This document shows positions 12,064 to 48,092 of a stretch of 64,000 nucleotides of DNA, in pieces. A program made the translations under genes and the position numbers. The stretch comes from Lytechinus pictus (taxonomy: Eukaryota): the NCBI RefSeq assembly GCF_037042905.1, contig NC_087250.1, positions 10,790,001 to 10,854,000 on the forward strand. Reading direction: 5' to 3'. Positions within the stretch are counted from its first letter, which is position 1; each line of letters starts with the position of its first letter. Below the pieces are notes generated by a model, which was not told the origin of the DNA, did no database searches, and worked only from the letters and a program-made list of their open reading frames with translations.

Positions 12064-12071
12064 TTATGTCG
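12064..12071 (-). CDS. Candidate last coding exon of the ROCO gene (adds T-T-stop, then 3' UTR)
   Basis: Good acceptor tcttttattcatcttatag|CGACATAA; a phase-1 join gives ACG ACA TAA. An alternative acceptor at 10090 (attattgcag|GAGG) is also possible, so this call is tentative. Confidence 0.4.
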
Positions 12072-13184
12072 CTATAAGATGAATAAAAGAGATATCTGAG
12101 TTAAGATTTAATATCTCTAGGTCGTAATCAACAACCACCTTTAGTGATATAATCTTTTTGAGGTTATAATTTTACCGTTTCCTGGTAATTCTGCCATGCC
12201 TATCTTTTCTTTGTCGTTTTAGTTGAGCAGTGAAATATAAATGAGAGTATAGTTTGCCTTAAACACAACAAAATTCTATATAATATATATTGCATCAAGG
12301 TTCTAAGGGAACCATGATTTGTGGATTAAATAGTATTTCTTAAAAAATAGAGAACGCTTGATTTCTGCCGTATAATGTAGCTCTTGGATGATAACCGAAT
12401 TCTATATTAAAATAATGAGATTAATTTTCATTTTGAGCAGCTAAAAGTAATAATGAATCGTGTAATTGTTTGTAATAAACACAATGCCTTGTTGTGGCAA
12501 TCTCTTATAATCAGGGCTAATCCAGCTGATTTTTTTAAAGAAAAGAACAATGTTTGTTTCGATCATTGTTTGAGGGGGTGAAAACAATTAAAATCATTTG
12601 TTTTTTCAATCTGTATTATTATTTTTTTTTTAATGGGGTACCATGTTTTGAATACGAGTATACGTTTGGTCATTTTGGACTCCTCTCTACGTCACGCTGA
12701 AACATTACAAATATATCAAGCATCTTAAACAACTTATAAAAAACGAAACAACGAATTATCGGAATCGTATTAAAAGAAAGTACATTTCGCAGTCACAAAC
12801 ACGCACGGACATATAGACAGACACGCATACATACATACATACACAAATTTTCTTACAAATGGAACGAACACTGCATTTCTAACCTATAGATAGTTCATGG
12901 ACTAAAGTCTAAAGTTTGGTAAGGGTCAGTAGTATGAACTTTATTTATCAAAGCTAATGACAAGTTTTAAGATTCTACAGTTAATAATGAAAGAATACGT
13001 TGAACAACATGCGGGTAAATGGAGACTATGTAAACATATTGAATATCATAGACAAGATCACATAATATAAGAATAAGAAATAAATACGGTGTTATAACAA
13101 GAAAAATATCACAGGTTTAATTTGAAAAAAAAAATATTGGGGCTTCTCCGTATAATATTTGGGTGTTGAATTTTTTGTACTTAC

Positions 13185-13478
13185 TTAAAGGAAAGAGTTC
13201 ATCAGCAAGACGGATTTCATCTGACCTCTCTAAAGCAATCTTCAATTCTTCTCTTTCTGTACCAGGTTTTTGCTTACGAAGCCAATCCCGGAGCATGAGA
13301 AGAGTTCCATCATATGTTACATGTTGTGTTTTGTGGTTAGTAGCTATGTATTTCTGTATGTCTTCAGGAGCAAACCGAAGATTTAATCCTAACTTGTCTA
13401 TCTGCGAGTTTTGCGGGACTCTGCTGGCGACCGTGATCAAGATGCTATCAAACTTGTCTTCTGTGGATCTCAAGTTAG
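13185..13478 (-). CDS. ROCO gene exon encoding a complete death domain (ANLRSTEDKFDSILITVA...KLGLNLRF...DIQKYIATN...VTYDGTLLMLRDW...ELKIALE...LADELFPL)
   Basis: tttattccccag|CT acceptor and TTAA|gtaagt donor; 294 nt, phase 1-1, matching the upstream phase-1 donors. Death-fold pattern LG..L.F...I, ML..W, L..AL, LA..L. Confidence 0.88.
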
Positions 13479-15594
13479 CTGGGGAATAAAAACAATACAT
13501 ATGAACCGGTATAAGCAAAAAAAAAAAAAAAATTGCAAAACATTAAAGCAGCGGGATTTCATGAATAAGCCCCCCCCAAAAAAAAATATATATATAATAA
13601 TAATAATAATGTTCATTAAAAAACACTAAAATATATATTGTTAATGTGTAAAGTATTTCAATACCCCCTCTCTCACTCTGTTAAGTTAGTCGCTGTTTAG
13701 GACAGGGACCAATTGCCTATTTCAAGTAGTACAGGTATTGAAATAAAAACATAGGAGGAAAACAAAATGAGGAAAGGATACATATAGGCCCGATAGAAAA
13801 TTGGCTAAACCTTGTTTTTTCATTTATAAAATATTTTTGATTGGTTCTTGTAAATTCGAGGGTGCTGATACACGAATCTGAATGATGCCACTCGTGTAAC
13901 TTTAAGCATTTTCTGCAAATCGGCAAAATTCAATATGGCCGCCAAAATATGGAAATTACCCATGAAAATAATAAAATTGCCCGCATATGGGCTATAAAAT
14001 GATTGAAATCGCGTGGCAGGAGTGACATACTCTTTGAAAAAATGATTTTTGACAAAATATTGAATTTCTTGAAATTCAAAATGGCCGACTTCGGCCCTTG
14101 TATACTTTATTATGTACAATATGAATAGGGAAAAATAATGTTCATAAAAATGAACACTAAACTGAAAAATTGTGATCTATAAACGAAGTAATGTATGAAA
14201 ATCATGATTACTAACGTAATATATTATACATACCAGGCTTTGAGTAAGTATAGCGGGAAGTATTTTTTCGAGGTTTGACTGGCATATTTTGTTTTATATT
14301 GTACATTTAATATGGTAGAACAATAGTCTATACTCTTGTACAAGTGGCTATCCTTCTTTAATCTGAACTTAAATACAACGCGCTGCGCTGAATAATCTAC
14401 CTTTCCCGAAACCACGTGCTAAGCGTAACGCGGATTTGTGCCTGCATCGTCCCTTGACGGGACCGGTGCGCCCGAGAGATTGATTGATCTGCGTCAATGA
14501 TCGATGACGTCAATGATAGAATAGTCGACTATTCCATCATTCACGTCACGGAATAACACATTTTCTTGGGTGGGCGTTTCATTTTCGACATCATCGCAAA
14601 CTAGTTAGAATGTGTTAGGTCACATGATAATATTTAAACCAATCAGCATACATGTACATGATTTAATTTATGTAGGATATTACATTTATTATCATACATG
14701 GGAAAATTGCTTCATTTCGATTTTCAAAAAAGACGCAATGGGGGCCGAAAAAATCATATTAAAAGAGTGAGCAATAAAAAGGATATTATTAAGATAAACG
14801 AGTGGAATACTGACTAAAACATAATTATTAACAAAATATATTATTTAATATGCCATTTATTTGATAAATGCTGTATTTTGACATTCAAAATGACCGCAGT
14901 AGGCCCTATGTTAATTATGTACTATGCGAATAGAGAAACTAACTTTCAGAAAATGCATGAAAATGTGATCTATGAGTAAAATATTGTTTTAAAACATTTT
15001 TTCAAGCAATACTTATTTCTTTTGTCACGCATGAGATAAACGCTGTATTGTGAATTTCAAAACGGCCCCTATACAGTGCGAATACAAAAAACGGGACAGA
15101 TTTGAACAGTATACAAAATTTTGGTTTCAAATTATGATGTCTATATTTCGGTATTAATAGGTGGTCTGAAGTCTAATCTTTGAAATGCCATCAAACAAAT
15201 TTAGTTTCGTTCATGCTTGAGCGAACACGGAATGTTTTTGTCTGGGGTTAAAAAGGAGGCTTGCGCCAAAATGGCATAAAATTATAAATATGATGATCGG
15301 ATTTTCAAATCTGTTTATTTGCTTAAATTGTTCTGTTGTTGTTTCTTTTTAATATGTTCTCTTTTAGCTTTCAGTATTCCTTCTTTAAGCAAAAAAATTA
15401 TTTTTTTCAAAGTATGGGAGAGCGTGTATTTTTTTTCAAATGCTTTCATTGTGTGCTACAAAGGTTTTGGTGCCTATGAACAGTGGAATACAGATGGGCG
15501 GGGCTCGGGGTGTTCCCCCAATTACAAAAAAAGTGGAAAGGAAATCAAATGAAAGATAGAAAGTGAAACATGATTTATTTTCGGAATATTATGT

Positions 15595-17538
15595 AACAAG
15601 TGGAATGCCTCTGGCTGTCTCACCTGCATCATGCGATTCAATATAGCAGCAGTGCTGACTTTGAAAACTACTATAAAATTATTATTCACAAAAAACACAA
15701 TTTATATAATGATACAATGCTACGTTCATTGAGATTTGACCTTAAACTTGTCAGTGATACTTGATTACCCCTATATCCACATTTTATACACTATATCTTT
15801 AAACTTTGAAAGTTATGACAGCAATCTAATAATTACCTCTAAAATTGCCGAAGTTTAATGACCTTAAGTGACCTTTGACTTTGGTCATGTGACCTGAAAC
15901 TCGCATGAGATGTTCAGTGATACTAGATGACTCTTATGTCCAAGTTTTATGAACTAGACCAATATATTTATACAGAGTTATAATGGTAATTCAACAAATA
16001 ACCCCAACATGGCCAAAGTCCTTGACCTTTGACGTTGGTCAAGTGACCTGAAATTCGCACAGGATGTTTAGTGATACTTGATTACTCTTATGTTCAAGTT
16101 TTATGAACTAGACCAATAAACTTTCAAAGTTATCATGGTAATTCAACAAATACCCCCAACTTGGCCAAAGTTCATTGACCTTACATGACATTTGACCTTA
16201 ATCATGTGACCTGAAACTCACACAGGATGTTCAGTGATACTTGATTACTCTTATGACCAAGTTTCATGAATCAGATCCATTAACTTTCGAAGTAATGATG
16301 GCAATTCAACATATACCCCATTATGGCCAAAGTTCATTGACCTTTGAGCTTGGTCATGTGAAACTCGGACGGGATGTTCAAAGATACTTGATTACTCTTA
16401 TGTCCAAGTTTCATGAATCAGATCCATAAAGTTTCAAAGTTATGGTGGTAATTCAGCAAATGTCCCACATGGCCAAAGTTCATTGACCTTTGACGTTGGT
16501 CATGTGACCTGAAATTCGCACAGGATGTTTAGTAATACTTGATAACTCTTATGTTTAAGTTTCATGAATCAAATCCATAAATATTCAAAGTTATGATGGT
16601 AATTCAACATATATCCCCAAATTGGCCAAAGTTCAATGACCTTACATGACCTCTGAGCTTGATCATGTGACCTGAAACTCACACAGGTTGTTCAGAGATA
16701 CTTGATTACTCCTATAGCTAAGTTTCATGAATCAGATATATAAACTTTCGAAGTAATGATGGCAATTCAACATATACCCCATTATGGCCGAAGTTCATTG
16801 ACCTTTGACCTTGGCCATGTAAAACTCGGACGGGATGTTCAAAGATACTTAATTACTCTTATGTCCAAATTTCATTAATCAGATCCAAAAAACTTTCAAA
16901 GTTATGACGGTAATTCAAAAGATACCCCCCACACGACCAAAGTTCATTGACCTTTGACGTTGGTCATGTGACCTGAAATTCGCACAGGATGTTTAGTGAT
17001 ACTTGATTACTCTTATGTCCAAGTTTCATGAATCAGATCCATAAACATTCAAAGTTATGATGGTAATTCAACATATATCCCGAATTTGGCCAAAGTTCAT
17101 TAACCCTAAATGACACCTGGCCTTGGTACGTGACGTGTAACTCAAGCAGGATGTTTAGTAATACTTGATTAACCTTATCTCTAAGTTTCATGAACTAGGT
17201 ATATATATTTTCTAAGTTATGATGACATTTCAAAAACGTAACCTTAGGTTAAGATTTTGATGTTTATTCCCCGAACAAGGTCAAGTTTATTGACCCTAAA
17301 TGACCTTTGACCTTAGTCATGTGACCTGAAACTCAAGCAGAATGTTTAACAATACTTGATTAAACTTATGGCTAAGTTTCATGAGCCAGGTCTATATACT
17401 TTTCAAGTTATGTCTTCATTTCAAAAACTTAACCTTCGGTTAAGATTTGGTGTTGACGCCGCCGCCGCCGTCGGAAAAGCGGCGCCCATTGTCTCACTTT
17501 GCTATGCAATCTCATTCTGCTATGCAGGTGAGACAAAA
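15595..17538 (+). mobile_element. Helentron/HINE-like element carrying a ~150-160-bp satellite array
   Basis: Starts AACAAG. Subterminal inverted repeat gtctcacctgcat (15617-15629) / atgcaggtgagac (17522-17534). About 10 tandem units (gacctttgac...catgtgacctgaaactc...gatacttgattactcttatgtccaagtttcatgaa), a (GCC)n tract and a 3' hairpin. Confidence 0.8.
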
Positions 17539-17943
17539 TCTATCACAAAAATTGATATTTTACCCCAAAAAAATGAAATTTTTACCTGCTCGCTTCGCTC
17601 GCTCACAATACATTTCATCCGATCTGCTATGTCTAGCTCCTTCAAAATTGATTCAATACACCACTGCCATTGAAAAACATGAACCCTTTCCTGTTTGTCC
17701 TGTCAAGCAAACAATTAAACTTGGTCAAGGAATCAATAACCCCTTGAAATAGGATTCATGTTTTTAAAGGTACCATAACATAATTTGTTTTAGGTAATAA
17801 AATACGATTTGAATAATTACAAGTTCTCTCAATTAATAATGCAAATCTTCTTGCTTCGGTTGACAAAAGTCTTCTTACTTATGAAGGAAAATTCAAAGGC
17901 TAAAGAAATATTTTAATGAAAAAACAAACAAAATAATCAAAAT

Positions 17944-18233
17944 ACCGACGAAATTCAGGGATTTTTTTTCATATAAAAATAAATGTACGAAAAAAAATAT
18001 TTTTGTCATTACGACTAACACTTGGCTGAATCAAATATTTGAGATAAATGAAAATGAAATGTAAAACTAAAAGATAAACCAGCTAGCTTGCATGCACCGC
18101 GGAAATAAATTCCTTTCATTTCCGTGGCTTGCACATGCAGCTCTTGTTTACAAGCTAAATATAGCTAGCTAGCTGGTTGATCTTTATCGTACATTTATTC
18201 TTATATGAAAAAAAATCCCCGAATTTCGTCGGT
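17944..18233. mobile_element. Short palindromic MITE
   Basis: accgacgaaattc.ggga(t)n catata..aataaatgtacga / tcgtacatttattcttatatg(a)n tccccgaatttcgtcggt inverted ends. Confidence 0.7.
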
Positions 18234-20068
18234 CAGAATAATGATATCGAAATTCAAACAGAACGAGCGATCGAGTATCCATCCCACAGTTTATTTTCTC
18301 GTCGGTGCATATATCGTCTGCTGCTACTCATCATGAATTAATTTGGATACATACATTAATTGGTTCGGACATATCATTTTACTTGTTTGTAAGTTAATGC
18401 AATCACTATTTTAATTATTACATTTCGAAGTTGTTAAGTGAGAGAAGAGACTCTGTATCGTGGACCTTTTCCATTTTTTGGCCTGGCGTTTGGGTGGTAC
18501 GTGCACCGTGCAGGTGCAAAGTAATGTGAGTTGACTAACAACAGTTCACGTTCATTCCACTCTCCATCACCGGCGCAATTCCCCTAATTTTCCTTCTTCC
18601 ATGTCGCTTTGATGTTAACTAGAGCTAGAATCTTCATCATCAATATCTTCTTCTTCAACAACATTTCTTTCGAAATCCAAATCTAGATATAACTTATGTG
18701 TTTTCTTCCATTTCATGATCGAACTCCTCAGTGACAGTGTGGAGAAATCGCACGGACACTGGCATTTGCAGTATAGGTTTTGCATGCTAGTGGAGCTTGA
18801 CATGTGAGAGCCAATCACGTCTATCGTACAGACATACACGCCATCAAATTCGAGTCAATTCAGAGACCGATGCGAGACATATTTCAGGGAGGCATTTCAG
18901 CGCTTTTTAATTGGCGATTTCTACCTTGTGTACTATTTTTGTTATTTTCAAATGACCTAATGATAATCCCCACATCATTACCTTTCCATTGATATAAGGC
19001 CATATGTTTGAATTAATATATTTCTCCTTTAATTTATAGCATTTTGTCTGCAATGTAGGTGATCAATATCACTTTGTCATTCAAATTAGCTGGTACAAAC
19101 CCTTATTAAATTATGTAACATGTGTATAGGGAAACTGATTTTAACAAGAGTAAGAATCGTAAAATGCATGTAACTGTGATTTACCATTAAATATTGTAAT
19201 GAACATGATTTCTAATTTAATACATCAAATATTGGTCATGGAGGTAAAAAATGCTGTACTTTGAAATTCAAAATGGCTGCCGTAGGTCATAAAACTATTA
19301 TGTACATTGTAACTTGCGACATATATTTTTAAAAGAATTCGGTTTTGTTGACTATAAATATTGCATTTAATTGTGATGTAAAGGTGACACCATGGTGTCC
19401 AACGAGATATCATATCTTGTGTAATAAAGGGCATAAATGATTGAAAATGGTCACCATAGGTCCTTATCGTATTATGTACAATTTGAATTGGGACAAATAA
19501 TTTTCACAAAAGTGCATATGGCGGTCATTTTTAATGTTGTAATATACCATTTATCATCTTAATTGCCCAAGATATGATACGTTTTGTTAGAAATCATGTT
19601 TTCAGACAATATTTCACTCATAAAACACCATCTAGTCAAGCAAAGCCAAAATATGTTAAAATCATTTTTCTCAATTCACATTGTACATAATACCGTAAGG
19701 GCCTCTAGCGGCCATTTTGACTTTCAAAATACAGTACTTATCACCTACCTCACAGACAAAAAAATCATACATCTTGTAAGAAATTATGCTTTCAGACATT
19801 ATTTTACTCATGGATCACTATTAGGTGCATCAATGGTACTCACTCCTGTAAATATTTGTTTCCAACTTCTCATTGAACATACAGTCAACGTCTATAGCGG
19901 CCATTTTGAAATTCAAACTACAGTATTTAACACAAACTTGAAACCTGAATGATATATTTCGTTAAAATCATGTGTTTTAGACAGTATCCAATTTATTTAT
20001 CACAAATTCATTCATTAAGTGCTCACTCTTCTGATTTATTTTTGTCCTCTTTCTCATTGTACATTGTA

Positions 20069-20683
20069 CGATCCGATTGACCGTCAGATAGACATATTTT
20101 CGACACTATACCAATTATAATTTCATGTGTCGGGTGAAGGTGGGTTTTGAACAATGACAAGCCGCCATGCCTCAGCTGGATCAAAGGTATTGCTTTGATA
20201 CAGTACACGTATGGGAGAAAGTATACAAATGTGTGAAGTTATACATGTACAACAGCTTTGGCAACTCTTTTATTTAAATATTGTGTGAAAGAAATGGATA
20301 AAGAGAACAATAATAGGCGTAGCTTAAATCAAGGTTCCCCAGAGCTATCTATATCCTTTGGAAAAATTGGTGATGCCGAAAAAATGTCTCTGCCGGGAAT
20401 ATAACCCGGGCCCCCAGCTTTGAACGCCGGTGCCTTAACCCCTAGATCACAGAGACGGGTTAGTGGCTAGGGCGACCCCGATCCGATTGACCGTCAGATA
20501 GACATATTTTCGACACTATACCAATTATAATTTTCTGTATCGGGTGAAGGTGGGTTTTGAACAATGAAAAGCCGCCATGCCTCAGCTGGATCAAAGCTAT
20601 TGCTTTGATACAGTACACGTATGGGAGAAAGTATACAAATGTTTGAAGTTATACATGTACAACAGTTTTGGCAAGTCTTTTAT
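20069..20683 (-). repeat. tRNA-containing ~410-bp satellite, array 1 (1.5 units)
   Basis: cgatccgattgaccgtcagata recurs at 20069 and 20479; same unit as 48150-49413. Confidence 0.9.
20385..20456 (-). pseudogene. tRNA-like cloverleaf in a satellite unit (anticodon position TCA; B box mutated to TTATATT)
   Basis: GTCTCTG/CAGAGAC acceptor stem, CCGGC-GTTCAAA-GCTGG anticodon arm, CCGGG/CCCGG T stem, followed by T6. Confidence 0.75.
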
Positions 20684-20743
20684 TGTTATTTTGTTATGGC
20701 CCTAACATCATCGGACTTAAAATTAATAGCCTGACCGGTCTCA

Positions 20744-21054
20744 GCGGTGTGTACTTTTGCACTTTTTCCAACCATGCCCCTCGTAATCTTCTTGGGTCGT
20801 GTGAGTGAGAAAACGAGTGAGACACTGAGTGCATTCGAACATGATACCTTTCTTGTGAACCTCTTTTACATGCTTATGGATAGTTCTAAGGGTAATGTAA
20901 TGAAGTCTTTCTTGCAACATGGACAGCTATAAACATCCTTTATTCCCTTAATAAGAATAAGATTGTGGACCGGAGTCCGAAAATCTTGGAAGTCAATGAG
21001 GTCCTCAGCATCCGATTCCTCTGACGGGGTATTGGATGCAAGTGTTCTTTCCAC
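20744..21054 (-). pseudogene. Frameshifted C2H2 + CCHC-like zinc-finger coding fragment
   Basis: Removing a 5-bp duplication (ATTAC ATTAC) restores YSCPCCKKDFITLRTIHKHVKEVH-KKGIMFECTQCLTRFLTH...GHGWKKC. Confidence 0.6.
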
Positions 21055-21153
21055 CGAAAATCGGTTGTTATGGCCGTAACATCAGCGGACCTAAAATTAA
21101 TAGCCTGACCGCTGGGGATGTACATATACATATATATTATTTTACATGCTTAT

Positions 21154-21204
<51 letters not shown>

Positions 21205-21456
21205 TATATATATATACATATATTATATATACATAATATTTTGTCAAAAATCATTTTTCAGAGTATTTTACTCCTGCCACACAATTTTATGTATTTTATA
21301 GCCTATGTGGGGGGAATTTTAATTAACAAGAAACCAAAACAAATATTGTATTTATGAAAAAACAAGGTTATGCCTCTTCTATACTGGACTGAAAATGGGA
21401 GTCGTACGATTCATTTAAGAGACATAGGGCTTCATGAAGATATCCATGAAAATTAC

Positions 21457-21507
21457 CTGCAAATAGGGCTTGGCGTTCTGGTCCCATCCCTGCGCCTAGC
21501 CCACGAT
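21457..21507 (-). CDS. ROCO gene linker mini-exon (DRGLGAGMGPERQALFA)
   Basis: ccgtag|AT acceptor and GCAG|gtaatt donor; 51 nt, phase 1-1, after a 97-nt intron. A GC-rich island in AT-rich DNA. Confidence 0.7.
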
Positions 21508-21604
21508 CTACGGTTTGAAATACCATGCTTTAATTAATGCATTGACAAAAATTCTATCGAAAGTGATAGAAACAATTGCGATAACTTAAACAATAATTTC
21601 ATAC

Positions 21605-21830
21605 CTTCTGAATGCTTGTTGAATGCCTTCACGATACGACCCACATTTTCTGCACAGAGATTAATGCAAGTTCCCTTTTCCTTCTTTTCTTCCAGGATAC
21701 GTCTCATGTGAATGAACCCCTTCTTGCCGAATTTGGTACACCGTGTGCAGGGGATCCCGATAGAATATTCAATTCCTCTTGCCCAGAGCCTTTGGAGGCT
21801 TTTCAACGATTCATGTAGATGGTTAATAAC
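21605..21830 (-). CDS. ROCO gene exon, end of COR with CxxC (VINHLHESLKSLQRLWARGIEYSIGIPCTRC...NKHSE)
   Basis: tatcattcag|GTT acceptor and GAAG|gtatga donor; 226 nt, phase 0-1. 'W..G+.Y...IPC..C' is typical of the COR C-terminus. Overlaps ORF 21534..21806. Confidence 0.88.
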
Positions 21831-22329
21831 CTGAATGATAAAGTTTGCTAATTAATGTTACAAACAGTTCGTATAGAAAATCAATGAATGCAGCCATTGT
21901 ACCAACGAGCAACAGGGGTTTTCGTGCCCCGGGCACAACTTTTGGGGGCTCAAAACATAAAAATAGGGGATAAAAAGATAAAAAAAATATATAATGGAGA
22001 GAAAGACAAGTATACGTTTATGGCATAAGAAGAGTGGAAAACTTGGAAAATTGAAAAAAAAAATCACGTTGTTATATAACAAAAAATGTTCTCTCGCACT
22101 TCGAGCTCGCATAGGTTTGAAATATCCAGTTTTTATGTCAATTTAAAGAACATATCGAAGTTCGCATATCGAACTTTCATTATTACGTTTGATATACACC
22201 TTCACAAAAACTGCCAAAAAAAAGTTTTACGACTTAAGGTCTGAATATCAAATATATATATATTACACTTAGTACTAGTTAAAAGAGACGCAGTTTTAGC
22301 TCTAGCCCCGAGAGCTGTTTTTCCTAGAT

Positions 22330-26319: not shown

Positions 26320-26394
26320 ATCCTCATTCAGGCTGACCATTGCTTTGGGGCGTGCGCCTTCTTCATTGTCAGGCACTATTGTATATATTGTGAC
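26320..26394 (-). CDS. ROCO gene exon (VTIYTIVPDNEEGARPKAMVSLNED)
   Basis: tgtttgtgtattttag|GTC acceptor and GAT|gtaagt donor; 75 nt, phase 0-0, open frame. Confidence 0.75.
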
Positions 26395-28939: not shown

Positions 28940-28976
<37 letters not shown>

Positions 28977-29042
28977 TAGAGTGAAATACTTCACTTTAAG
29001 AGGGTATAGTTTTATCAAGAATAATGTATTCATTTAAATAAC

Positions 29043-29209
29043 CTTGATCTGATTAGGCTCTTCATTATGAATATCGTTGGTCATCTCCATTCTATGATCA
29101 CTATCTATATAGAACACCATTTGCCTGCAGTGAAAAGTTGGAATGAGGGACGGTTCTCTCTCCATTGACCACTTTGCCATTCGAACGTACAATCGGTGCA
29201 AAATGCCAT
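29043..29209 (-). CDS. ROCO gene exon, COR domain (DGILHRLYVRMAKWSMEREPSLIPTFHCRQMVFYIDSDHRMEMTNDIHNEEPNQIK)
   Basis: aaatag|AT acceptor and AAG|gttatt donor; 167 nt, phase 1-0. Splicing rebuilds FLPDGILHRLYVR, the conserved COR motif, across the intron. Confidence 0.9.
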
Positions 29210-29540: not shown

Positions 29541-29652
29541 CTGGTAAGAAGTGATTGAAGTCGATGACAAATTCGATCTCATCTTCTCTCGTAAATTGTT
29601 GTATCTCATCAAGTATAGGGGAAGATCGGCATGGAACAAAAAAACTTCTCTC
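29541..29652 (-). CDS. ROCO gene exon, COR domain (ERSFFVPCRSSPILDEIQQFTREDEIEFVIDFNHFLP)
   Basis: aattgcag|GAG acceptor and CCAG|gttaat donor; 112 nt, phase 0-1. Contains 'FVPC' and the first half of 'FLP.G..HRL'. Confidence 0.9.
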
Positions 29653-34660: not shown

Positions 34661-34834
34661 CACGTTCTCTCGACCTGGAATCTCGCAGATAAGATCAAAC
34701 TTCTTCATCATATCAATAATGCCATCGAGTTGCGCATGCTCTCCTTTAATTTTCGCCAATACAGCGTTGACGATGGCAATGTTAAGTATTCCATTGTTCT
34801 TCAGTTCCTTGTAATGTTTGCCCAGGCCAGTTTG
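34661..34834 (-). CDS. ROCO gene exon, COR domain (QTGLGKHYKELKNNGILNIAIVNAVLAKIKGEHAQLDGIIDMMKKFDLICEIPGRENV)
   Basis: ttgtttcgcag|CAA acceptor and GTG|gtgaga donor; 174 nt, phase 0-0. 'GIL' and 'M.KFDLI' COR motifs. Confidence 0.9.
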
Positions 34835-35404: not shown

Positions 35405-35506
35405 CCAATAAATTATCTAACCAATGATTACACGATCGATTTCCCTTTCTGCAGTCCCCCTCTCTCCTTAAATTTGTCTATAAACTAAAGAAAATGAACA
35501 TCAAAC

Positions 35507-35689
35507 CATTAGTTCGTCGTCGATCACTGTTATGATGTCACCGATGATGGCATTCAGATACTGTGGCCTGAGTACGATGAGCTTACATCCTTGGTGATAT
35601 ATGATATGGCCTGTATCATGAAAGAACTGAAGAATTCTACCCTGCTCTTCTTTATTCTCGATTTGCCATGATTTCATTCTTGAGCGCGC
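35507..35689 (-). CDS. ROCO gene exon, COR domain (ARSRMKSWQIENKEEQGRILQFFHDTGHIIYHQGCKLIVLRPQYLNAIIGDIITVIDDELM)
   Basis: ttttcttttcaaatag|GCG acceptor and ATG|gtttga donor; 183 nt, phase 0-0. Carries the COR signature L.FFHD.G.I.Y ... V.L.P..L. Not in the ORF track. Confidence 0.9.
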
Positions 35690-37116: not shown

Positions 37117-37139
37117 TACTTAAAAGCATAACAATGATT

Positions 37140-37575
37140 TTGTTTACATTGAGTGATAGCAAGTCTGAAACGAATGCAATTCTCTATTCGAAATTATTAT
37201 TGAAGTTGAGTTACCGTGTGACAAAATAAGTTTGGAGACATCCGCGAATAAAAGAAATGACAGGCTATTTTGATGAATAATTAAAATCATTAATGAATAG
37301 TATGAATAGCAGTGGGCCAAAGGTGACCCTTGTGGTACAACACAAGAAATAATGTTTAATTTCTGATGTATAACCTTCTACTGATCAATCTGTTTTATGT
37401 TAGTTTAATAACTCGCGTACCATTCCAAGGCATTTGCACGCACACCATAACCATGATAATGTAAACACTTCTAAATCAAAATTTCATGATTGATCGTATC
37501 AAAGGCCTTGAAAAAATCAAGGAGTATACCAACACTGTACATGGAATTACCAATAGTATTTGCTACCTGATCAAA
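37140..37575 (-). mobile_element. Decayed CR1/L2-group LINE reverse transcriptase fragment (probably continues at ~36100-36400)
   Basis: Minus-strand remnants LLDFFKAFDTINHEIL, VVPQGS / PLLFILFIND and FADVS. Confidence 0.75.
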
Positions 37576-37941
37576 AATAGCATGAACTCGCGCACCATTC
37601 CACAATGAATGAAATTTCGAAAGCTAGTCGGGGTAGCCCGTTGTCTATACCATTTTAAAGAAATTGAAAAAAGAATATGGACCAAACGCCCGATTTTAGG
37701 AATGTATTCCACAAATGCTGCTGCGTCGTCTGAAAATCTTACAAAAGATTATTATTATTCAAAGAGCTCTTAAGAAGATTTTAGTGAGCAATGGAAAGCT
37801 CGAAATCACTTCGGACGATCTCTGTACAATAATATGTCAAAACGTGGCAAATATGCCAACCTTGATTTAAAGTTAGAAACAACAATGCAAGACAAAGAAA
37901 AAAAAAATTCTTCTTAAATTACAAAAATGACTAAATCTAAC

Positions 37942-38076
37942 CTCTTCCACAGTCATTGTATTTCGGTCGCTACCTTCTAATTCGCAAAGGAATGTATTCC
38001 ACATTATTGGAAAGCTGACTTTCATGTAGTCCGATGTAGAGATGATTACATCTATATGATGCTGGAGGCCATTCAC
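37942..38076 (-). CDS. ROCO gene exon, Roc/COR junction (VNGLQHHIDVIISTSDYMKVSFPIMWNTFLCELEGSDRNTMTVEE)
   Basis: aatcag|GTG acceptor and GAG|gttaga donor; 135 nt, phase 0-0. Contains the 'P..W..F' motif that opens COR domains. Confidence 0.85.
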
Positions 38077-39053
38077 CTGATTTTTTAATGAAAATGATAC
38101 AATTTAGTTATTTCTATTACTTTATGTGTTTGGGAAAAATGGTTTGTCAGTGCATAATTCATAAGAGATCACACGGAAATCTCGAGAGAGAGAGAAAGAG
38201 AGTGTGTAAGCAAAATAGAATGAACAATTTAAGATGAAGATGATGGGGCATAAACAATGCACTCTGCCACTTGTAACCTTGTGTTACCTTTAACCGTTGC
38301 CAGCTATAATGTCAATTACTCACTTCGTTCGCCTTCTTGGAAAATTGCATTACTTTTTTGTAATATTGGAATGTTTGATGATATCCAAGTATAGTCACAT
38401 TTCTGACCCTTTCTTGAACTGAATACAGGTATTAACTTGCAAGAAAAAAAAGATGCCCACTAACATAACAACTTCTTTAGTGATACACTGTTTTTTTATG
38501 GAATCACTAACTATGTAGCCTTAAACCATAGAGATGTATACTAATTACGCTAGAGTGTGGAGTCGCCATTCTTACAGGCATCAGTTAAAATAATAATAAT
38601 GATAATAATAAATCTCAACATTGTGAAAATATATCGATAATATGCATGAATAGTAAAGTGGTACGTATAGTCACATAACAAATCCCTATTGTTCTAAACA
38701 ATAGAAATATGAATTACGAAATATTATTTTTTTCTAAACAATAGTATATGAAATGTTAATAAAGTTATGACTATGGATCAATAAATATCAAATATGATTA
38801 TGAATTATGAAATGTAATTATGAAATATGAAATATGATAAATGGATCAGTAATTACGAAAAATTATATATGAATCGATTATTATGGAAATATGGATCAAT
38901 AATGAACACGTGACAATGAAGTCACGGACTGAGGAACAAATAACGTCATAGGATTGGGAAACATGATGACGACATCCAAAACAAAGTAGAGCAAAATAAT
39001 TGGTGGCAAGCATCGACAAGTGCAAAACGAAAGAAAAGTGAGGAAAATAAAAC

Positions 39054-40702
39054 GGTTACACTTCGTAATTCCGAAACACGTAAATTGCCTTTACCTCGAT
39101 GTTCGTTAATCCGAAAGCGAAAAAGAGTTCGTTAATCCGAACATTGTGGCGTTATTTCGAAGGTTCGATAATCCGAAAACGAAATAAGGTTCGTTGTTCC
39201 GAAGGTTCGTTAACCCGAAAACAAAATGAGGTTCGTTGTTCTGAAGGTTCGTTAATCCGAAAACGAAATAAGATTCGTTATTCCGAAGGTTTGTTAATCC
39301 GAAAACGAAATAAGGTACTTTATTCCGAAGGTTCGTTAATTCGAAAAATGAAAACCGGGAAAGCAGAGGAAGGGAAAGTGTGGTAGTGGAGGGGGAGAAT
39401 CGCCGTTGCTGTTCAATTGTTATGAGGATGGAAAGGCAAAGGCGGCCAAACGAATTTTTGTTTGGGGGCAAAGTAAAAAATGACACTCGTACGTCAAAAT
39501 GGGCACTTTGGTGATATTTTCACCATGAGATTATCATCTGCTTGAAGTCATTGTGTATTTTAAAGTAATTAAGCCTTTTTGAAGTGACTTCTGATTAGGG
39601 AAAGATGTATATTTAGGCTTTTTTTTCACGAGAGAGTATAATGAGCGAGCGGTTTGGAAAAAAATCAAAACTTAAGTTGTAAAACTCGTTTTGGGGGTCA
39701 ATTACTGTTAAAATGGCATTATTGCGAGGTGTTGCTAGCGAATCAAACGTTTGGAAATTTCATGTAGGCCTAATAATAATAATAATAATAATAATATTGG
39801 CATTATTTACCAAGGGAGGCCAATTCAGTTCTGAAAACTGTTCTCCTAGCGGGTCCTGCTATTAATTATCACCCCGGCTTTAGCTGGGCTGCCTAGGCGC
39901 CCAAGGAAGGCATTTAATGATTTTTTTCCCTACCGGGTACCCATTCATCTCACCTGGGTTGAGTGCAGCACAGTGTCGATAAATTTCTTGCTGAAGGAAA
40001 TTATGCCATGGCTGGGATTCGAACCTACGACCCTCTGTTTCATAGTCAAAAGACTATGATCACCTGGGCCACAACGCCCCACATAAAAAGTAAACAATCC
40101 GAGCATTTTTGTAATCATGAAGAAAGGATTAACATTGTTAACACTAGGCGTAACGATCAATAAAGTTTTATTAACATTGATATTCTTTATTTCCATTTTA
40201 TTATGATCATCGTTTAGATTATTCTGATCATCATTAGCATTATTTTTATATTTATTACTAGCAGAAGCTCATATTAAAAATGACATCCCCTCCAATACAA
40301 ATCCTATTATCTGGAGGTTACTCGCACGCGACCAACATAGGCAGCAATTGCTCAGATAAAATCAAAATTAAGACTATGCTTGATCCGGGCGCCTATTCTT
40401 AATGCAATATCTGCTTTGGCCACAGCACACACATGTATCATCGTTCGTTATTACTATTATTGCATAATATCCTGTTATCTTATAATGACAACACCATTCT
40501 TGTTACCAAAATGAGTTATTTTCATTTTCAGAAATACGAACCTTCGGATTAACGAACCTTCGGAATTACGAACCTCATTTAGTTTTCGGACTAACGAACC
40601 TTAGGAAATACGAACCTTCTGAAATACGAACCTCCGGAATAACGAACCTTCGGAATATCCGAACCTTCGGAATAACGAAGATTCAGAATCACAAATGTAT
40701 GC
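39054..40702. mobile_element. MULE-like non-autonomous element with a 9-bp TSD and tandem subterminal repeats
   Basis: aaataaaac duplicated at 39045-39053 and 40703-40711; gaaggttcgttaatccgaa arrays on the left, inverted cgaaccttcgga arrays on the right. Absent from the matching position in the right arm (~45330). Confidence 0.8.
39772..40080 (-). mobile_element. tRNA-derived SINE with a (TTA)n tail, nested in the MULE-like element
   Basis: Minus-strand head GGGGCGTTGTGGCCCAGGTG...GGTTCGAATCCC (A/B boxes); central ggtacccattcatctcacctggg segment resembling the Nin domain; microsatellite tail. Confidence 0.85.
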
Positions 40703-41759
40703 AAATAAAACAAAGGAAATGGCGTCATCCAAAACAAGAAACTCCAAAAGTATTAACGGCAAGCCCCAACAAGTACAAAACAAGACAATAGTTCAGAAAT
40801 GAAGGTTGTTTCGAAATTGAAACAGAAGAAAAGTAACGAAAGCGTTACGGGCCCTGGATGCGAGCCCTGGCTCTGGTCTTTCGGATGGTGGCATTATGTC
40901 TAAAGCTCGGTCAATTTCAAACGTGAATAATCATAATGTGAATAATACTTACCTGGAAATTACACCAACCATATACCTTGACACACACACACACTCATCC
41001 AAGTTTGTTGCCAAATTATTTTCCGAGAATTCAGGGCATACATGGACATGGACTTGTTACAGGGAAGAATGGTCAAGCACAAATGAAAACTTGCCCATTA
41101 TATATGAACTCATAGAGCGTAACGCTAGGGAGATACATTGAAAAGAAAACCGAATATAGATTTGTATAACATTACCATAAAAAACCATGTTGTCATGCAT
41201 CTTGTAGAGAACTGGCACGCGTATTATGTAATAGCTCTTTACTCTTGTTTGAATTGTCATGTATGTGAACCTGACTATTATATCAAACAGATCGATAAAA
41301 CGAACGGATGGTATATTTCGACAAATAATCAACGATTCTCATATATCTTTAACTTCCTTTTTTCATCATTTTTTTCATTCTAAAATTCGATTAAGAATTT
41401 ATTTCTATTTCTACTTTCCCTTCTTTGGTGCATATTTTTCTTTCACCAGAGACACATTGATCGTTGATATATTTTGTCAGACTTCCGCCGCGTCATATCT
41501 TAAGTTTCTCCAATTTAATTCATTCGTTAAAGTTTCTTCGGTTTCTTCACTTAATTTTCTTCATTCCTTCCATTTCTTCATATCCTTTCTTCATTTCTTT
41601 CATTTTTTTTCATTTCTTCATATTCTTTCATTTCTCCATTTTCTTTATTTTCTCCATTTTCTTTCATCTCTCAATTTTCTTCATTTTCGTCAACCATTCC
41701 GTCAAATCAACATAACACCACACCATAATTTCACCAATCTATCATACTATCATTTAAAC

Positions 41760-42570
41760 ATTTCATCAAATCGTCATACCATCGTATCGCCATTTCGTCA
41801 TATCGCCATTTCAGCATCCCGTCATATCACCAACCCGTCATTCCGTCATACCGCCATTTCAGCTTCCCGCCATTTACCATTCCGCCATTCCGTCATGACA
41901 TCACACCGTAATTTCGTCATACCACCATTTCACCATCCTGTCATATCCCCATCCCATCGTTCCGTCATACCACCATTTCACCATCAACAACCCATCATTC
42001 CATCATACTACCATTTAGCCATCCCGTCATATCACCAACCCATCATTCCGTCATACCGCCATTTCAGCTTCCTGCCAATTACCATTCCGCCATTCCGTCA
42101 TGACACCACACCGTCATTTCGTCATACCACCATTTTTACCATCCTGTAATATCCCCAACCCATCGTTCCGTCATACCATCATTTCACCATCCCGTCATAT
42201 CGCCAACCCATCATTCCATCATACTACCATTTAATCATCCCGTCATATCACCAACCCATCATTCCGTCATACCACCATTTCACCATCCCGTCATATCACC
42301 AACCCATCATTCCGTCATACCACCATTTCACCATCCCGTCATATCACTAACCCGTCATTCCGTCATACGATCATTTCAGCATCCCGCCATTTTACCATTC
42401 CGCCATTTCACCATCCCATCATGTTGTAATTTCGTCATACCACCATTTCACCATCTCGGCATACCGCCAATACACGAGCCCATCTTTCTGTCATGATATC
42501 AAACCGTCATTTCGTCATATCACAACTTCACCATTCCGCCATTCCGTCATGACTTCATACCGTCATTGCA
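41760..42570 (+). repeat. 48-bp minisatellite (ccgtcatatcaccaacccatcattccgtcataccaccatttcaccatc)
   Basis: Visible tandem units. Confidence 0.9.
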
Positions 42571-42730
42571 CCATGCTGGCAGTTGCACGGGGTCAGCGGC
42601 GCAGTAGAAATAATGCGAGGTCACTATGCGGTGTTCGATATGAAACTTGACATTGGAAAGTTAAAATGCAATAAAAGGGAAAAATTATGTTTTATTTCAT
42701 CATTTGCAAGTTTGAATCCATTGGGTCAAC

Positions 42731-43374
42731 ATGAATACTCGCGATACAGTAAAGCGTTACTGTTATTCAATGTGTAAAAAGTCTAAAAGTCGAAACTACG
42801 ATTTAAAGTGGCATCAAAGAGATGCACACCCTGAAATGGAAGATGATGGAGATGTGACCGATTACACTGAAGATTCTAGCGTTGTTGGAGGAGAAAGTGG
42901 CGACGAAAACACTGAAACAAGTGATTATGAAACAGAGAAAGGAGAAGAAAATTAAACAAAATACAGAGATCCTTGAAGGAGACGAACCAGCAGACAACCT
43001 GGCTTATCAAAAATGGTACAAAGAAGCGCTGTCAGCTACAGACCAACTAAGGGATGAAAAGTGCCATAAATATATATCCAAGGGTATTCGTGGTGACGAA
43101 GCTAAATAAAAGGCTCATGCGAAAGTACTATGGGCTATTAAACGCATATTTTTCGAACGCTACTCCAATTTCTTAAGGATTAACTTTATTTCTTGAAGAA
43201 GACCAAACCAATCAGGAAATTATATCTGATGTCAAAGAAAAAGTAGAAAAGGGTATTGATGTACGGAAAGCAATTCAAAGAGTCCTAGCCAGACATGGGA
43301 CAAAATTCGGCGGACTGTTCCAATATCAACCTGAAGATGATGCCGATGGTGATGAAGATATGGAAGGGACTTAA
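42731..43374 (+). pseudogene. Intronless decayed gene: N-terminal zinc finger, acidic tract and helical domain (Maverick/Polinton accessory-gene-like)
   Basis: YCYSMCKKSKSRNYDLKWHQRDAH, acidic run, then DNLAYQKWYKEAL...KAHAKVLWAIKRIFF...QEIISDVKEKVEKGIDVRKAIQRVLARHGTKFGGLFQY; two frameshifts and in-frame stops. Family assignment is from memory, not a search. Confidence 0.55.
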
Positions 43375-44029
43375 GAAAGCGGTAACTTAGACCAGCACAT
43401 AGAGGAACTCCTTATAAATCACAAATCCAAGTGATAAATGCAATTTGTTTCAATCGTATTTCAAAATACATAACTTCTTACATTATCTCCGACTCAAAAT
43501 TATGTTATACAGATAATAATAATGAAGAAGTAATGCTCTTATCATATGTATTTAGCAGCATATATATTTTGTATTTAATAATTTTTTTATTTACTTTTAT
43601 TTCGACAGGGTAGCCCCATCAATAATTTACATACTGTTATACAAGGGGGCGCTGCATAATATAAAAACAAATCGTTGCATGTAAAAAAAATGTGTTAACA
43701 TAAAGGAAAATCATAATGAATATTTCACACACAAAAACCATAATAAATAATGGGTGGTATAATTTACATCAAACATTTAAATTGGAATAATAAAACATCT
43801 GATACATCAACAATTTTATTGTATTTTACAGGAGTATATCATATTTTCATCGCCAACCTGCGTGAGATTTGGTCTACCCCTGTGTCATGAAAAAAAGAAA
43901 CAACACCCCCAAATATGTTGATATAATGTCGAAATGATGAGAAAAATCAATTTGTCGGCATAACGGATTTTCATGTGTTGGTATGACGAGTTTTAATGTT
44001 GGCATGACGTTGGTATGGCGTCCTATGGG

Positions 44030-44560
44030 TTGAAATGGCAGTATGACGGGATGCTGAAATGGCGGTACGACGAAATGATGGGTTGGTGATATGACGGGAT
44101 GGTGAAATGGCGGTATGACGGAATGAGGGGTTGATGATATGACGGGATGGTGAAATGGCGGTATGACGGAATGATGGGTTGGTGATATGACGGGATGGTG
44201 AAATGGCGGTATGACGGAATGAGGGGTTGGTGATATGACGGGATGGTGAAATGGCGGTATGACGGAATGATGGGTTGGTGATATGACGGGATGGTGAAAT
44301 GGCGGTATGACAGAATGATGGGTTCGTGATATGACGGGATGGTGAAATGGCGGTATGACAAAATGATAGGTTGGTGATATGACGGGATGGTGAAATGGCG
44401 GTATGACGGAATGATGAGTTGGTGATATGACGGGATGGTGAAATAGTGGTATGACGAAATGACGCAACGGCGGAATGGTAAAATGGCGGGAAGCTGAAAT
44501 GGCGGTATGACGGAATGATGGGTTGGTGATATGACGGGATTGTAAAATGGTGGTATGACT
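44030..44560 (-). repeat. Same 48-bp minisatellite in inverted orientation
   Basis: tatgacgggatggtgaaatggcggtatgacggaatgatgggttggtga units; source of the 16-aa periodic ORFs in the track. Confidence 0.9.
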
Positions 44561-45964
44561 ATACGTACCACTTTACTAAAGTTGTACGTATAGTCACATA
44601 ACTAATCCCTATCGTTCTAAACAATATAAATATGAATTATGAAATATTCTATTGTTCTAAAAAGTATAGTCACATAACTAATCCATATTGTTCTAAACAA
44701 TAGAAATATCGAATTTTAGAATGAACAAAGTGATGAAAAAAATAGGTTAAAGAAGTATGAGAATCGTTGATTATTAGTCGAAATATACCATCCGCTCATT
44801 TTATCGATCTATTGCATAATACGCGTGACTGTTCTCCACAAGATGCATGACACCATGGTTTTTTATGGTAATGTTATACAAAGTGATATTCGGTTTTCAT
44901 TTCAATGTATCTCCCTAGCGTTACGCTCTATGAGTTCCTATATAATGGGCAAATTTTCATTTGTGCTTGACCATTCTTTCCTGTAACAAGTCCATGTCCA
45001 TGTATGCCCTGAAATCTCGGAAAATAATTTGACAACGAGCTTAGATGAGTGTGTGTCAAGGTATATGGTTGGTGTTATTTCCAGATAAGTATTATTCACA
45101 TTATGATTATTCACGTTTTAAATTGACCGAGCTTTAGGCTTAATGCCACCATCCGAAAGACTCGAGCCAGGGCTCGTATCCAGGGTCATTGGTGCTTTCT
45201 CTACTTTTCTTCTGTTTCTTCTGTTTTAATTTCGAAACAACATTCATTTGTGAACTATTTTCTGGTTTTGTTCTTGTTGGGGCTTGTAGTTAAAACTTTT
45301 GGAGTTTCTTGTTTTGGATGACGTAATTTCATTTTTTCCTTCACTTTTCTCTCGTTTTGCCCTTGTCGAGGCTTGCCGCCAATTCTGTTGTTCTACTTTG
45401 TTTTGGAAGTCGTCATCATGTTTCACAATCCAATGACGTCATTTGTTCCTCAGTCCGTGACGTCATTGTCACGTGTTTATTATTGATCCATAATTTCATA
45501 ATAATCGATTCATATATCATATTTCATAATTAATGATCCATTTATCATATTTCATACATTTCAATCACATTTCATAATTCATAATCATATTTCATATTAT
45601 TTGATCCATATTTCATAACTTTATTAATATTTCATATTCTATTGTTTAGAACAAAAAATACTTCATAATTCATATTTCTATTGTTTAGAACAATAGGGAT
45701 TAGTTATGTGATTATACGTACCACTTTACTACTCGTGCATATTATTGACATATTTTCACAATGTTGACATTGCGATTTTAATTATTACATATTATCGTTA
45801 TTATTACTTTAACTGATGCCTGTAAGAATATGTATCCCATTAGATGTTTTTTAAAGCATAGAGATATATACTAATAACGCTAGATGGCGTACTTTGTCAA
45901 ATCTATGTGATTACGCGGAGACCGGCCGCCATTATACTCGATAGGTCTTAACAGCCTACCATGC

Positions 45965-46492
45965 CATCCTATTTCACTATTGAATAATGATTATACAATT
46001 TTGGCTAAGATCATTTCATTTAGGTTAAAAACAAGTATTAGACCCAATTATTCATGAAGATCAGTGTGGCTTCTTAAAAGGCCGTTACATCAGCGAGAAT
46101 ATTAGACTGTTTATTGACACAATGGATTATTGTAAATATAGAAATATACCGGGTGTTGCACTCTGTATAGATTTCGAAAAAGCATTCGACATGGTTGATT
46201 GGAAGTTTTTGTATACAGTATTACGTATGTTTGATTTTAAAGAATGTTTTGTACGTTGGGTACAATTGTTATACTCTAACATTGAAGGATGTGTTATCAA
46301 TAACGGATTCTCCTCAAACCCTTTTCCAATAAAGCAAGGAGTAAGACAGGGGTGCCCCCTCTCTCCCTATCTTTTTCTTTTGGTAGTAGAAATTCTAGGT
46401 ATAATGATTCGTCAACATAAGAATATAAAAGGAATCTCCATAGAAAATAATGAATTAAAATTAAGCCAATATGCAGACGATACTGTGATTTT
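45965..46492 (+). mobile_element. L1/Tx1-clade LINE reverse transcriptase fragment
   Basis: PISLLNNDY, DQCGFLKGR, IDFEKAFD, GVRQGCPLSPYLF and YADD motifs; truncated at both ends. Confidence 0.92.
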
Positions 46493-47981
46493 CTCCATCC
46501 CGCCTGCCATGCACGATATGGGGCATGTATACGGATGAGCACAGAACAGAAACAAATTTATGACATATGAGCGCGAAAGCAAATGGAAAAGCAAAATTGT
46601 AAAATAAAGTTCAAATTAACAAAGAATCTATCAAAACTAAGTCAAAACTGCCTATATAGTCCTATAGGGCATAATATATCCTACAAATGATACAGTCCAA
46701 CGATATACATCCCCAATCGTTTTTGCTTCGGTCATAAAATGTCGATGTATTATAAATATGACTTTTATTTTCTGATGATTTGGAAGGGATGAATATTAAA
46801 AATAACATGCAGGCCTTGGCAAATCGTTCTAGGTCCTGCAAATTTAACATGATCTGGTATTCAAGTTGACCTCATAAATTTCATAGGCCCTTTCACAGTG
46901 TCTGATGCATCCGAGACACAAGGTATCGAAAAAAACACGATTGCATTTTTTTTTCAAGTATAGTTTCCAAATTACTATGATGCTGATTGCTGGTAATTTA
47001 TTTCTTTACTTTTGATAAATTTTATAATTTATTTTCAATATAGATCTACACATATAAATCATATATAGAAAAGGGCCTAACTCCTTATCATGGTTTTAAA
47101 CGTCGATGTAACCAACATCACAATAACTCGTCATAAATGACCTTTATTGATAATATTTGAAAATGATTTATGCATTGGTCCAGTTAATTGATAAGTTTAT
47201 GACTTAAATTTCAAATGCTGTCAACCATCTGGTCATATTGATTACTTAAACGTGTGAGCAATTTAGAAATGTTTGTTGGCAGTAAAATTTACATATCAAA
47301 TGCGCGCATGCAGTAGTACAATTTTACAATGTAAAAGAGGCCTAGCAATGGGGTAAAGTGCAGGATGTTTACAGGGTATTATTGACTTGCAAACATTTCA
47401 ATATTTCGGAGAGTAAACAAATTACAATGCGTGTTTGACGCAACATAGAACAATTTCACTTTGATTTTCTGGAAAGTCTAAACTTGATTCACTCCGGCTG
47501 AAATACTATGCAGATCGGCAAACCGGCTGAAATATTCTGTTGATATAATTATGGCCGGCGTTTGTGATCCTATAATGATTGGACCAATATTATGTGAACA
47601 AATCAAGGATAGAATAATAAGAAAGAGAGGAATAAGGAGGAGGAGGATGATAAGAGAAGAAAAAGGGTGGGAAGACTGAGGATATTTGTATTATACTACA
47701 AATATTATTATTACTAAAACTGAGTGTATAAAACCAATTGATAACGATATCATGAAAGAGATTCATAAATGCAAACTTAATAAACTTATCATATAAAAAC
47801 GGTTGCAAAATTGTGAGTACTAAAACTGAACATAATATTATTTGAAGATTGAAAAACTGAAAAAACTTGGATTGCATTGTTAATACTTCCGTAATGTTGC
47901 ACTACTGACGACGGCATGGGGTGGCAATTTGGTGGCAATGGTGACGAATAAATCATACCTGTTCAACTGCAGCTAACTTAC

Positions 47982-48092
47982 CTCATTTGCTCGTGCATAA
48001 CGGTTGTCAAACAATCGAATTGGCCACATGACTTGCTTGCTATAAGGTCTCGATTCGATGAGTTCCTTCAGGACTTTTTCTTTGGAGGCAAC
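47982..48092 (-). CDS. ROCO (Roc-COR-death domain) gene, first exon found in the window: C-terminal end of Roc domain (VASKEKVLKELIESRPYSKQVMWPIRLFDNRYARANE)
   Basis: Acceptor ttcacttctacacag|GTT and donor GAG|gtaagt; 111 nt, phase 0-0. The 'RPY..qV....lFDN' pattern resembles the end of invertebrate Roc domains. Joins in frame to the exon ending at 38076. Confidence 0.75.

Follow-up and report, generated by a model that had tools for sequence, protein, structure and literature searches.

What does the 64,000-nucleotide window of the sea urchin Lytechinus pictus genome analysed here (contig NC_087250.1, positions 10,790,001 to 10,854,000 of the forward strand) encode: a Roc-COR protein that ends in a death domain and, if so, is that protein a GTPase? 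Analysis of the window, of its flanks and of related proteins and public sequencing runs makes it fairly probable that the minus strand carries an urchin ROCO-like gene, in which a Roc-like domain, COR-A, COR-B and a death domain follow one another with no kinase, leucine-rich repeat (LRR) or ankyrin part. An earlier interpretation, made from the letters of the window and called here the sequence-only reading, had placed a gene of this kind at the locus. The window has the composition of AT-rich animal DNA (G+C fraction of 0.28-0.41 per 2 kb), and the pieces of the gene are visible in it as stop-to-stop open reading frames (ORFs) of the minus strand.

Ten exons were rebuilt between positions 48,092 and 12,064, all with an AG acceptor and, except after the stop, a GT donor, and all in compatible phases. 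Their lengths are, in order, 111, 135, 183, 174, 112, 167, 75, 226, 294 and 8 nt, giving 1,485 nt, or 494 codons and one terminal stop, with no internal stop. The ten stop-free GT-AG exons described by the sequence-only reading are thereby borne out, the last one, of 8 nt, as a candidate exon only, while its total of 1528 nt (about 510 aa) could not be reproduced, the rebuilt chain being 43 nt shorter. The junction FLP/DGILHRLYVR that it had singled out was confirmed: with exon 29652-29541 ending in phase 1, its last G joins the following AT to form an aspartate codon. COR-A is likewise rebuilt across a junction, as had been proposed, since the exons at 35.5 and 34.7 kb match consecutive positions of its profile.

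Two L. pictus RefSeq models, both annotated as 'uncharacterized protein', correspond to this chain, namely P0001 (LOC129263369, 449 aa) and P0002 (LOC129263368, 275 aa). A protein search with the translated 21.6 kb piece returned two matches among 18 candidates, P0001 at 99% and P0002 at 91% identity. Alignment of both models to the window by tblastn gave a collinear exon chain with 80-100% identity per exon, and the window is the best and only close match for either of them in the genome of 812 Mb and 368 contigs. Over 394 aa, the ten-exon product and P0001 share 93.7% identity. Judging from their 93-94% identity and from the accession series, P0001 and P0002 likely represent the same locus in another assembly or haplotype. 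Both are shorter than the window gene, begin at internal Met codons and end in other 3' exons, at 17.7 kb or 0.85 kb to the left of the window, without a death domain. The exon chain is real: chance is excluded because the exons match named sea-urchin proteins exon by exon, at the identities given above, and because a public contig carries the spliced form.

This contig came from the alignment of four public runs, X1 (Logan contigs) and the three raw RNA sequencing (RNA-seq) runs X9-X11, to positions 12,001-32,000 of the window. In record 1 of X1 (1,331 nt, depth 30, minus strand), record positions 820-1043 correspond to 21605-21828 and the adjoining 1044-1331 to 13191-13478, which makes the two stretches contiguous at 21605/13478. 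The contig therefore joins the last COR-B exon directly to the death-domain exon, which bears out the proposed order, in which a death domain, and not a kinase, comes after Roc-COR; the separate transcript that the sequence-only reading had named as the finding that would speak against it is not what this record contains. Position 13191, where the contig stops, was considered as the exon end and dropped, the predicted donor lying 6 nt further on (13185/13184). Further upstream, the X1 depth is 3.37 in the bin 26008-26674, which equals 30x75/667, and 5.08 in the bin 29343-30009, close to 30x113/667. By this arithmetic both values fit exon-only coverage of the 75-nt and 112-nt exons, which suggests that the same spliced molecule extends upstream. 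A retrocopy or close paralogue is an unlikely source of the contig because each of the joined exons occurs once in the genome, with next best matches of 68% for the last COR-B exon and 74% for the death-domain exon.

The identity of the exon 13,478-13,185 was established through its relatives, as the exon itself gave no match to Pfam Death at E<=10. A phmmer search against 1.84 billion representatives returned 140 relatives at E<=0.001, 28 of them at <=1e-10, the best being L. pictus, L. variegatus and S. purpuratus proteins. The domain scan covered 60 of the 140, namely the 40 that reach 300 aa and, from the 100 shorter relatives, 20 with a length of 181 aa or more, and found Pfam Death in 19, on the exact exon-matched stretch in at least 10. 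ZU5 was present in nine of the scanned proteins and NACHT in eight, beside CUB, Ig, caspase, ankyrin and TIR. The window's death domain is closest, at 56-65% identity, to those that terminate other urchin proteins. Searching the PDB with a 56-sequence profile yielded seven matches, all of them death domains (Fas, PIDD, ankyrin-1 and THOC1 among them), with Fas as the best (E=6.9e-5). The AlphaFold2 model of the exon is a six-helix bundle with a predicted local distance difference test (pLDDT) score of 93.4, and Foldseek ranks 1-15 are all death domains, with template-modelling (TM) scores of 0.53-0.73 and E>=0.13, as expected for a 97-residue query. By its modelled fold and its sequence likeness, the exon encodes a true death domain. 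The nearest named matches are the death domains of ankyrin-1/G, PIDD and UNC5H2, which belong to ZU5-UPA-death proteins (PIDD, ankyrin and UNC5 type); in the window gene, by contrast, neither ZU5 nor UPA is encoded ahead of the death domain. The exon begins and ends in phase 1 and can therefore be included or skipped without a change of frame.

Three continuations are in phase after the last COR-B exon: the 17.7 kb exon, the exon 0.85 kb to the left of the window, and the death-domain exon. The second of these, 845-931 bp beyond the left edge of the window, is the last exon of P0001; it matches over 29 aa with 100% identity and is entered in phase 1. Depending on which 3' end is used, the product would probably carry or lack the death domain. 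After the death-domain exon itself, three candidate endings can be read from the sequence, a read-through stop at 13,117, the 8-nt exon at 12,071 and the exon at -0.85 kb. The 8-nt exon has no AATAAA or ATTAAA within 760 nt downstream. The 21-nt micro-exon of P0001 (DVPSVQS) was not recovered between 21.7 kb and -2 kb, either by codon pattern or by a peptide match of 5 of 6 residues.

Toward the 5' end, tblastn with the S. purpuratus models P0148 (LOC105437112) and P0149 and with the L. variegatus model P0143 (LOC121417254) revealed two Roc pieces inside the window, at 56542-56452 and 54121-54045, which together make 168 nt in frame without a stop. Separated by about 2.3 kb, the two pieces form a split duplicate of an intact 174-nt exon, which lies at window-equivalent 86,515-86,342 (G000:C6:10876342-10876515), 22 kb past the right edge of the window. 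The split and intact copies share 83% DNA identity, and collinear matches extend over several kb. Both G4-region copies are in frame and bounded by AG and GT; they could be mutually exclusive alternatives, or one of them may be a pseudo-exon. The first exon of P0001 is of the 54.1 kb type, and that of P0143 of the 86.4 kb type.

Further Roc exons were found at window-equivalent 95,018-94,929 and 103,245-103,058. The latter carries WDFGGQ, in which the DxxGQ signature (G3, switch II) is present, and matches Pfam Roc with E=5e-4, below the gathering score. From 103,245 to 13,185, a chain of 12 exons comprises 1,929 nt and 642 open codons, with phases that all fit. Since exons lie at about 95 and 103 kb, the gene spans about 90 kb or more. 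The sequence-only reading had placed the 5' part beyond a large intron filled with transposable elements, and the exons at 86.4, 95.0 and 103.1 kb agree with it. It had also seen no P-loop or G4 exon in 48.1-64 kb; this holds for the P-loop, which was not found there either, and fails for G4, whose region is represented by the two pieces just described.

Is the encoded protein a GTPase? COR-A follows directly after Roc, with Pfam matches on two consecutive window exons, and in P0001 Pfam recognizes COR-A (E=1.3e-15) and COR-B (E=6.4e-9); P0002 contains COR-B (E=1.5e-10, aa 91-239). The assignment of COR-B in the window is by proxy, through the stretches of P0001 and P0002 that its exons encode at 89-100% identity, as none of the four single COR-B exons matches in Pfam, being too short to score. 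The sole PDB match of the family profile was COR-A of the archaeal Roco protein 4wnr (E=1.4e-5), with none to DAPK1.

The canonical Walker A motif of the Roc P-loop (G1), GxxxxGK[ST], is absent from the 642-codon chain, from minus-strand ORFs of at least 25 aa between 57 and 134 kb (by regular expression), from the S. purpuratus models P0148 and P0149, where the Pfam Roc match begins at profile position 28, and from the 7.5 kb upstream of the G3 exon in two paralogues on contig C8. Pfam analysis of 131 upstream ORFs of at least 45 aa up to 134 kb recovered only the 103.1 kb Roc exon and transposon genes, and no P-loop or N-terminal death-domain exon came up in a tblastn search (E<0.01) as far as +134 kb; a short or more distant exon would escape these P-loop searches. 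The G4 motif [NT]KxD is degenerate, reading GTFAKEG at 86.4 kb and GTFARKG at 54.1 kb, both lacking the Asp, and no [NT][KHF]xD occurs in the first 200 codons. The AlphaFold2 model of P0149 (mean pLDDT 34.6) is too poor to judge a Roc-like fold. With G4 degenerate and no P-loop recovered, Roc probably acts as a structural pseudo-GTPase and not as a hydrolysing switch, and the GTPase label given by the sequence-only reading is unsupported.

A search with P0001 identified nine proteins at E<=0.001 among 2,599 candidates of similar length; among 2,378 longer candidates none reached E<=1e-5, which is weak evidence. Four of the nine family models have a C-terminal death domain after COR-B, namely P0143 and the S. 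purpuratus models P0144 (LOC115918438), P0147 (LOC100891098) and P0148, whereas P0149, a further S. purpuratus model like P0138, begins with one. The window model is 70.7% identical to P0143, 52.4% to P0144, 48.4% to P0147 and 39.7% to P0148. These four proteins resemble the window gene exon by exon: all are collinear with it from the Roc tail through COR-A and COR-B, carry a death domain at the C-terminus and lack a kinase. That terminal domain is, however, of another subtype; the death domain of the window groups instead with urchin death domains linked to ZU5, NACHT and CUB. When the C-terminal death domains of these four proteins were made into a profile and run by hmmsearch over 6,817 ORFs of at least 15 aa from -20 to +134 kb, no copy of the family's own subtype was found (best E 0.79, wrong strand). 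A decayed remnant of the usual domain had been suspected at 12.1-11.9 kb from a tblastn match (E=2.8) and the reading frames, and was rejected, the ORF being unranked by this profile. No death domains were found within 20 kb downstream of the two contig C8 paralogues. The claim of a Roc-COR-death family thus stands for the layout and falls short for the death domain, which differs in subtype from that of the relatives and is skipped by the named models.

The genome holds three loci of the family, which does not support its description as expanded. No kinase or ankyrin match was detected among the window ORFs examined, the 131 upstream ORFs to +134 kb or the nine family models, and no LRR exon was found. 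On these comparisons, the window gene can be placed as a new member of a small, unstudied, urchin-specific ROCO-like family; it is not a new kind of gene, since related predicted genes are already in public databases. The literature searched, with subscription journals outside its scope, yielded no description of urchin Roc-COR-death proteins. Such proteins might be mentioned in the 2006 sea urchin apoptosis and immune-gene surveys.

According to one review, Roco proteins fall into three groups, of which only the DAPK1 group has a death domain, after kinase and ankyrin repeats, and the order of Roc-COR and then a C-terminal death domain is described as metazoan-only (PMC6337361). DAPK1 shares with the window gene the C-terminal death domain after Roc-COR; it differs in its N-terminal calmodulin-regulated kinase, its ankyrin repeats and its GTP-binding Roc, whereas neither kinase nor ankyrin nor P-loop was found here. 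In Aplysia, ROCO domains are reported to be fused to TIR- and Death-containing proteins, for which a role in immune signalling has been proposed (PMC9334734). These too are invertebrate proteins combining Roc-COR with death-fold or TIR adaptor domains, but they belong to another phylum, have other architectures (TIR, LRR, EF-hand, Mbt) and can be likened to the window gene by shared domains alone. The accessible portion of an amphioxus domain-shuffling paper contains no mention of Roc (PMC2575513).

Taken as a working model, the ROCO-like gene has 5' Roc exons 22-39 kb beyond the right edge of the window, which supply DxxGQ and the intact G4 region; the eight exons from 48.1 to 21.6 kb encode the Roc tail and COR-A/COR-B, and the phase 1-1 exon adds the C-terminal death domain. 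This exon was probably gained by exon shuffling into the last intron, which is the most economical reading. Dimerisation would come from the COR module, as it does in other ROCO proteins; the death domain would recruit partners by homotypic death-fold assembly, an arrangement that would suit an adaptor. The protein could then act, as a putative function, in apoptotic or innate immune signalling.

Several observations weigh against this model. The spliced form is represented by one contig from one run, and that X1 derives from RNA is a guess. Its COR-B piece shows 12 differences in 224 positions and its death-domain piece 0 in 288, an unevenness that may reflect another allele or a graph chimera. 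Runs X9-X11 have a depth of about 0-0.4 in the bins holding the exons at 29.6, 29.1, 26.3 and 13.3 kb; in X9, 28,413 of 31,255 aligned reads are only 90-95% alike, and species or tissue may not fit. The named models of the locus, P0001 and P0002, skip the death domain, and Pfam COR or Roc occurs in 0 of the 60 scanned death-domain relatives.

A more elaborate version of the ROCO-like gene, which we regard as unlikely, treats it as a P-loop-less pseudo-GTPase scaffold with a signalling output switched by splicing. A shuffled-in death cassette would have replaced the ancestral one and would be included or skipped through the three 3' ends, the duplicated G4-region exon may be mutually exclusive, and the locus would be highly polymorphic (about 6% protein divergence from one version of the locus to another), like an immune-type gene.

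We consider it distinctly improbable that the locus is a decaying or truncated remnant, for example a transcribed pseudogene or a 5'-truncated copy, whose open frame would reflect its recent past and which makes no functional protein. Such decay would account for the in-window G4-region exon, a duplicate into which about 2.3 kb of DNA has been inserted, for named models that begin at internal Met codons, for the missing P-loop, for the lack, between -20 and +134 kb, of the C-terminal death domain usual in the family, for introns full of transposons and satellites, and for the near-zero depth in the three raw RNA runs. It would leave unexplained why twelve exons over 90 kb keep their AG/GT sites, their phases and 642 open codons, why the X1 contig has a depth of 30, and why the COR and death-domain motifs are conserved relative to the L. 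variegatus (70.7%) and S. purpuratus (52%) proteins.

Least likely of all, the death-domain exon would sit in another transcript, as the N-terminal exon of a decayed or distant tandem paralogue or as a stand-alone gene, with the COR gene ending without it: the 36.8% identity of the window's death domain to the N-terminal death domain of P0149 and P0138, against no detectable likeness to the family's C-terminal ones, an in-frame ATG just upstream of the exon's acceptor, an old segmental duplication at the locus, the skipping by P0001 and P0002 and the absence of COR from the 60 scanned relatives all point that way, but X1 joins 21605/13478 exactly at the predicted GT/AG sites, the acceptor has a strong polypyrimidine tract and CAG and a matching phase 1, and the 33 kb that follow the exon (window 1-13,000 and 20 kb to the left) yield neither Roc nor COR exons by tblastn.

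Table 1. Exons and exon pieces of the ROCO-like gene in the window, listed from 5' to 3' on the minus strand.
Feature	Position	Strand	Evidence and properties
Roc-region exon piece, first half of duplicated G4-region exon	56452..56542	-	91 nt, starts phase 0, ends phase 1, AG/GT; tblastn 84% identity to S. purpuratus P0148 aa 118-149
Roc G4-like exon piece, VGTFARKG, no Asp	54045..54121	-	77 nt, AG/GT; first exon of P0001, tblastn 91% identity to P0001 aa 1-23
End of Roc-like domain (G5 region)	47982..48092	-	111 nt, phase 0-0, AG/GT; tblastn P0001, P0143, P0138
Start of COR-A	37942..38076	-	135 nt, AG/GT; tblastn 89% to P0001, whose Pfam COR-A match begins here
COR-A exon	35507..35689	-	183 nt; Pfam COR-A E=9.7e-6, profile 30-83; 93% to P0001
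COR-A exon	34661..34834	-	174 nt; Pfam COR-A E=0.0038, profile 84-133; 91% to P0002
COR-B exon ending ...NHFLP	29541..29652	-	112 nt, ends phase 1; tblastn 89-95% to P0001/P0002
COR-B exon starting (D)GILHRLYVR	29043..29209	-	167 nt, AG/GT; tblastn 95-96%
COR-B exon	26320..26394	-	75 nt; tblastn 100% to P0001/P0002
Last COR-B exon	21605..21830	-	226 nt, ends phase 1; 99% to P0001
Alternative 3' terminal coding exon, no death domain	17653..17699	-	AG acceptor, enters phase 1, 14 codons and stop; 80% to P0002 C-terminus
Death-domain exon	13185..13478	-	294 nt, symmetric phase 1-1; long polypyrimidine tract, CAG acceptor, GTAAGT donor
Possible read-through tail of death-domain exon (donor unused)	13117..13184	-	22 extra codons, then stop; AATAAA at 12945; read from sequence
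Candidate tenth exon, Thr-Thr-stop	12064..12071	-	8 coding nt; good acceptor, read from sequence

The window, P0001 and P0002 are mosaics, the per-exon identity to the window ranging from 80 to 100% and switching between the two models; the X1 contig likewise shows 5% differences in one exon and 0% in the next. These mosaic versions of the locus suggest unusually high allelic diversity or gene conversion.

The introns are rich in repeats. Within a 10-kb intron, 38772-45610 is an element of about 6.8 kb with long inverted arms, pairing 38772-39050 with 45332-45610 (89%), 40987-41237 with 44806-45056 (93%) and 42134-42581 with 44031-44462 (77-90%). The arms contain 48-bp tandem repeats, which create long false ORFs, and the central ORFs at 42716-43374 (+) match no Pfam family; the whole looks like a foldback-type transposon. 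Between the exons at 26.3 and 21.8 kb, 24278-24662 and 24905-25274 form a near-perfect palindrome, with ORF translations mirrored on both strands about 250 bp apart. A satellite with periods of 147 and 461 bp occupies the intronic stretch 15897-17233, closely following the alternative terminal exon at 17.7 kb; it is very deep in all four runs (mean 350-770 in the raw RNA runs), with joints jumping forward and back as in tandem arrays. The intronic transposon genes (46029-46538 (+), 62688-64000 (-), 37471-37623 (-)) include an RVT_1 reverse-transcriptase ORF (E=8.6e-24), and a long ORF resembling a long interspersed element (LINE), with no Pfam match, runs off the end of the window. Upstream of the window, L017:2857-4827 (-) and L017:7009-7974 (-) comprise a reverse-transcriptase and GIY-YIG ORF, in a Penelope-like layout, and a Tc1/DDE_3 transposase.

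As to annotation, the named models that currently represent this L. pictus locus include neither the death-domain exon nor, about 90 kb away from it, the 5' Roc exons. In practical terms the gene is of modest importance, being one member of its family, with related models already public and a function that stays putative. For the ROCO family at large, urchins would add a small, unstudied set of kinase-less Roc-COR-death proteins to classifications in which only DAPK1 has a death domain. If their Roc domain truly has no P-loop, this family would provide a natural experiment on the abilities of a COR dimer joined to a death domain when GTP cycling is lacking.

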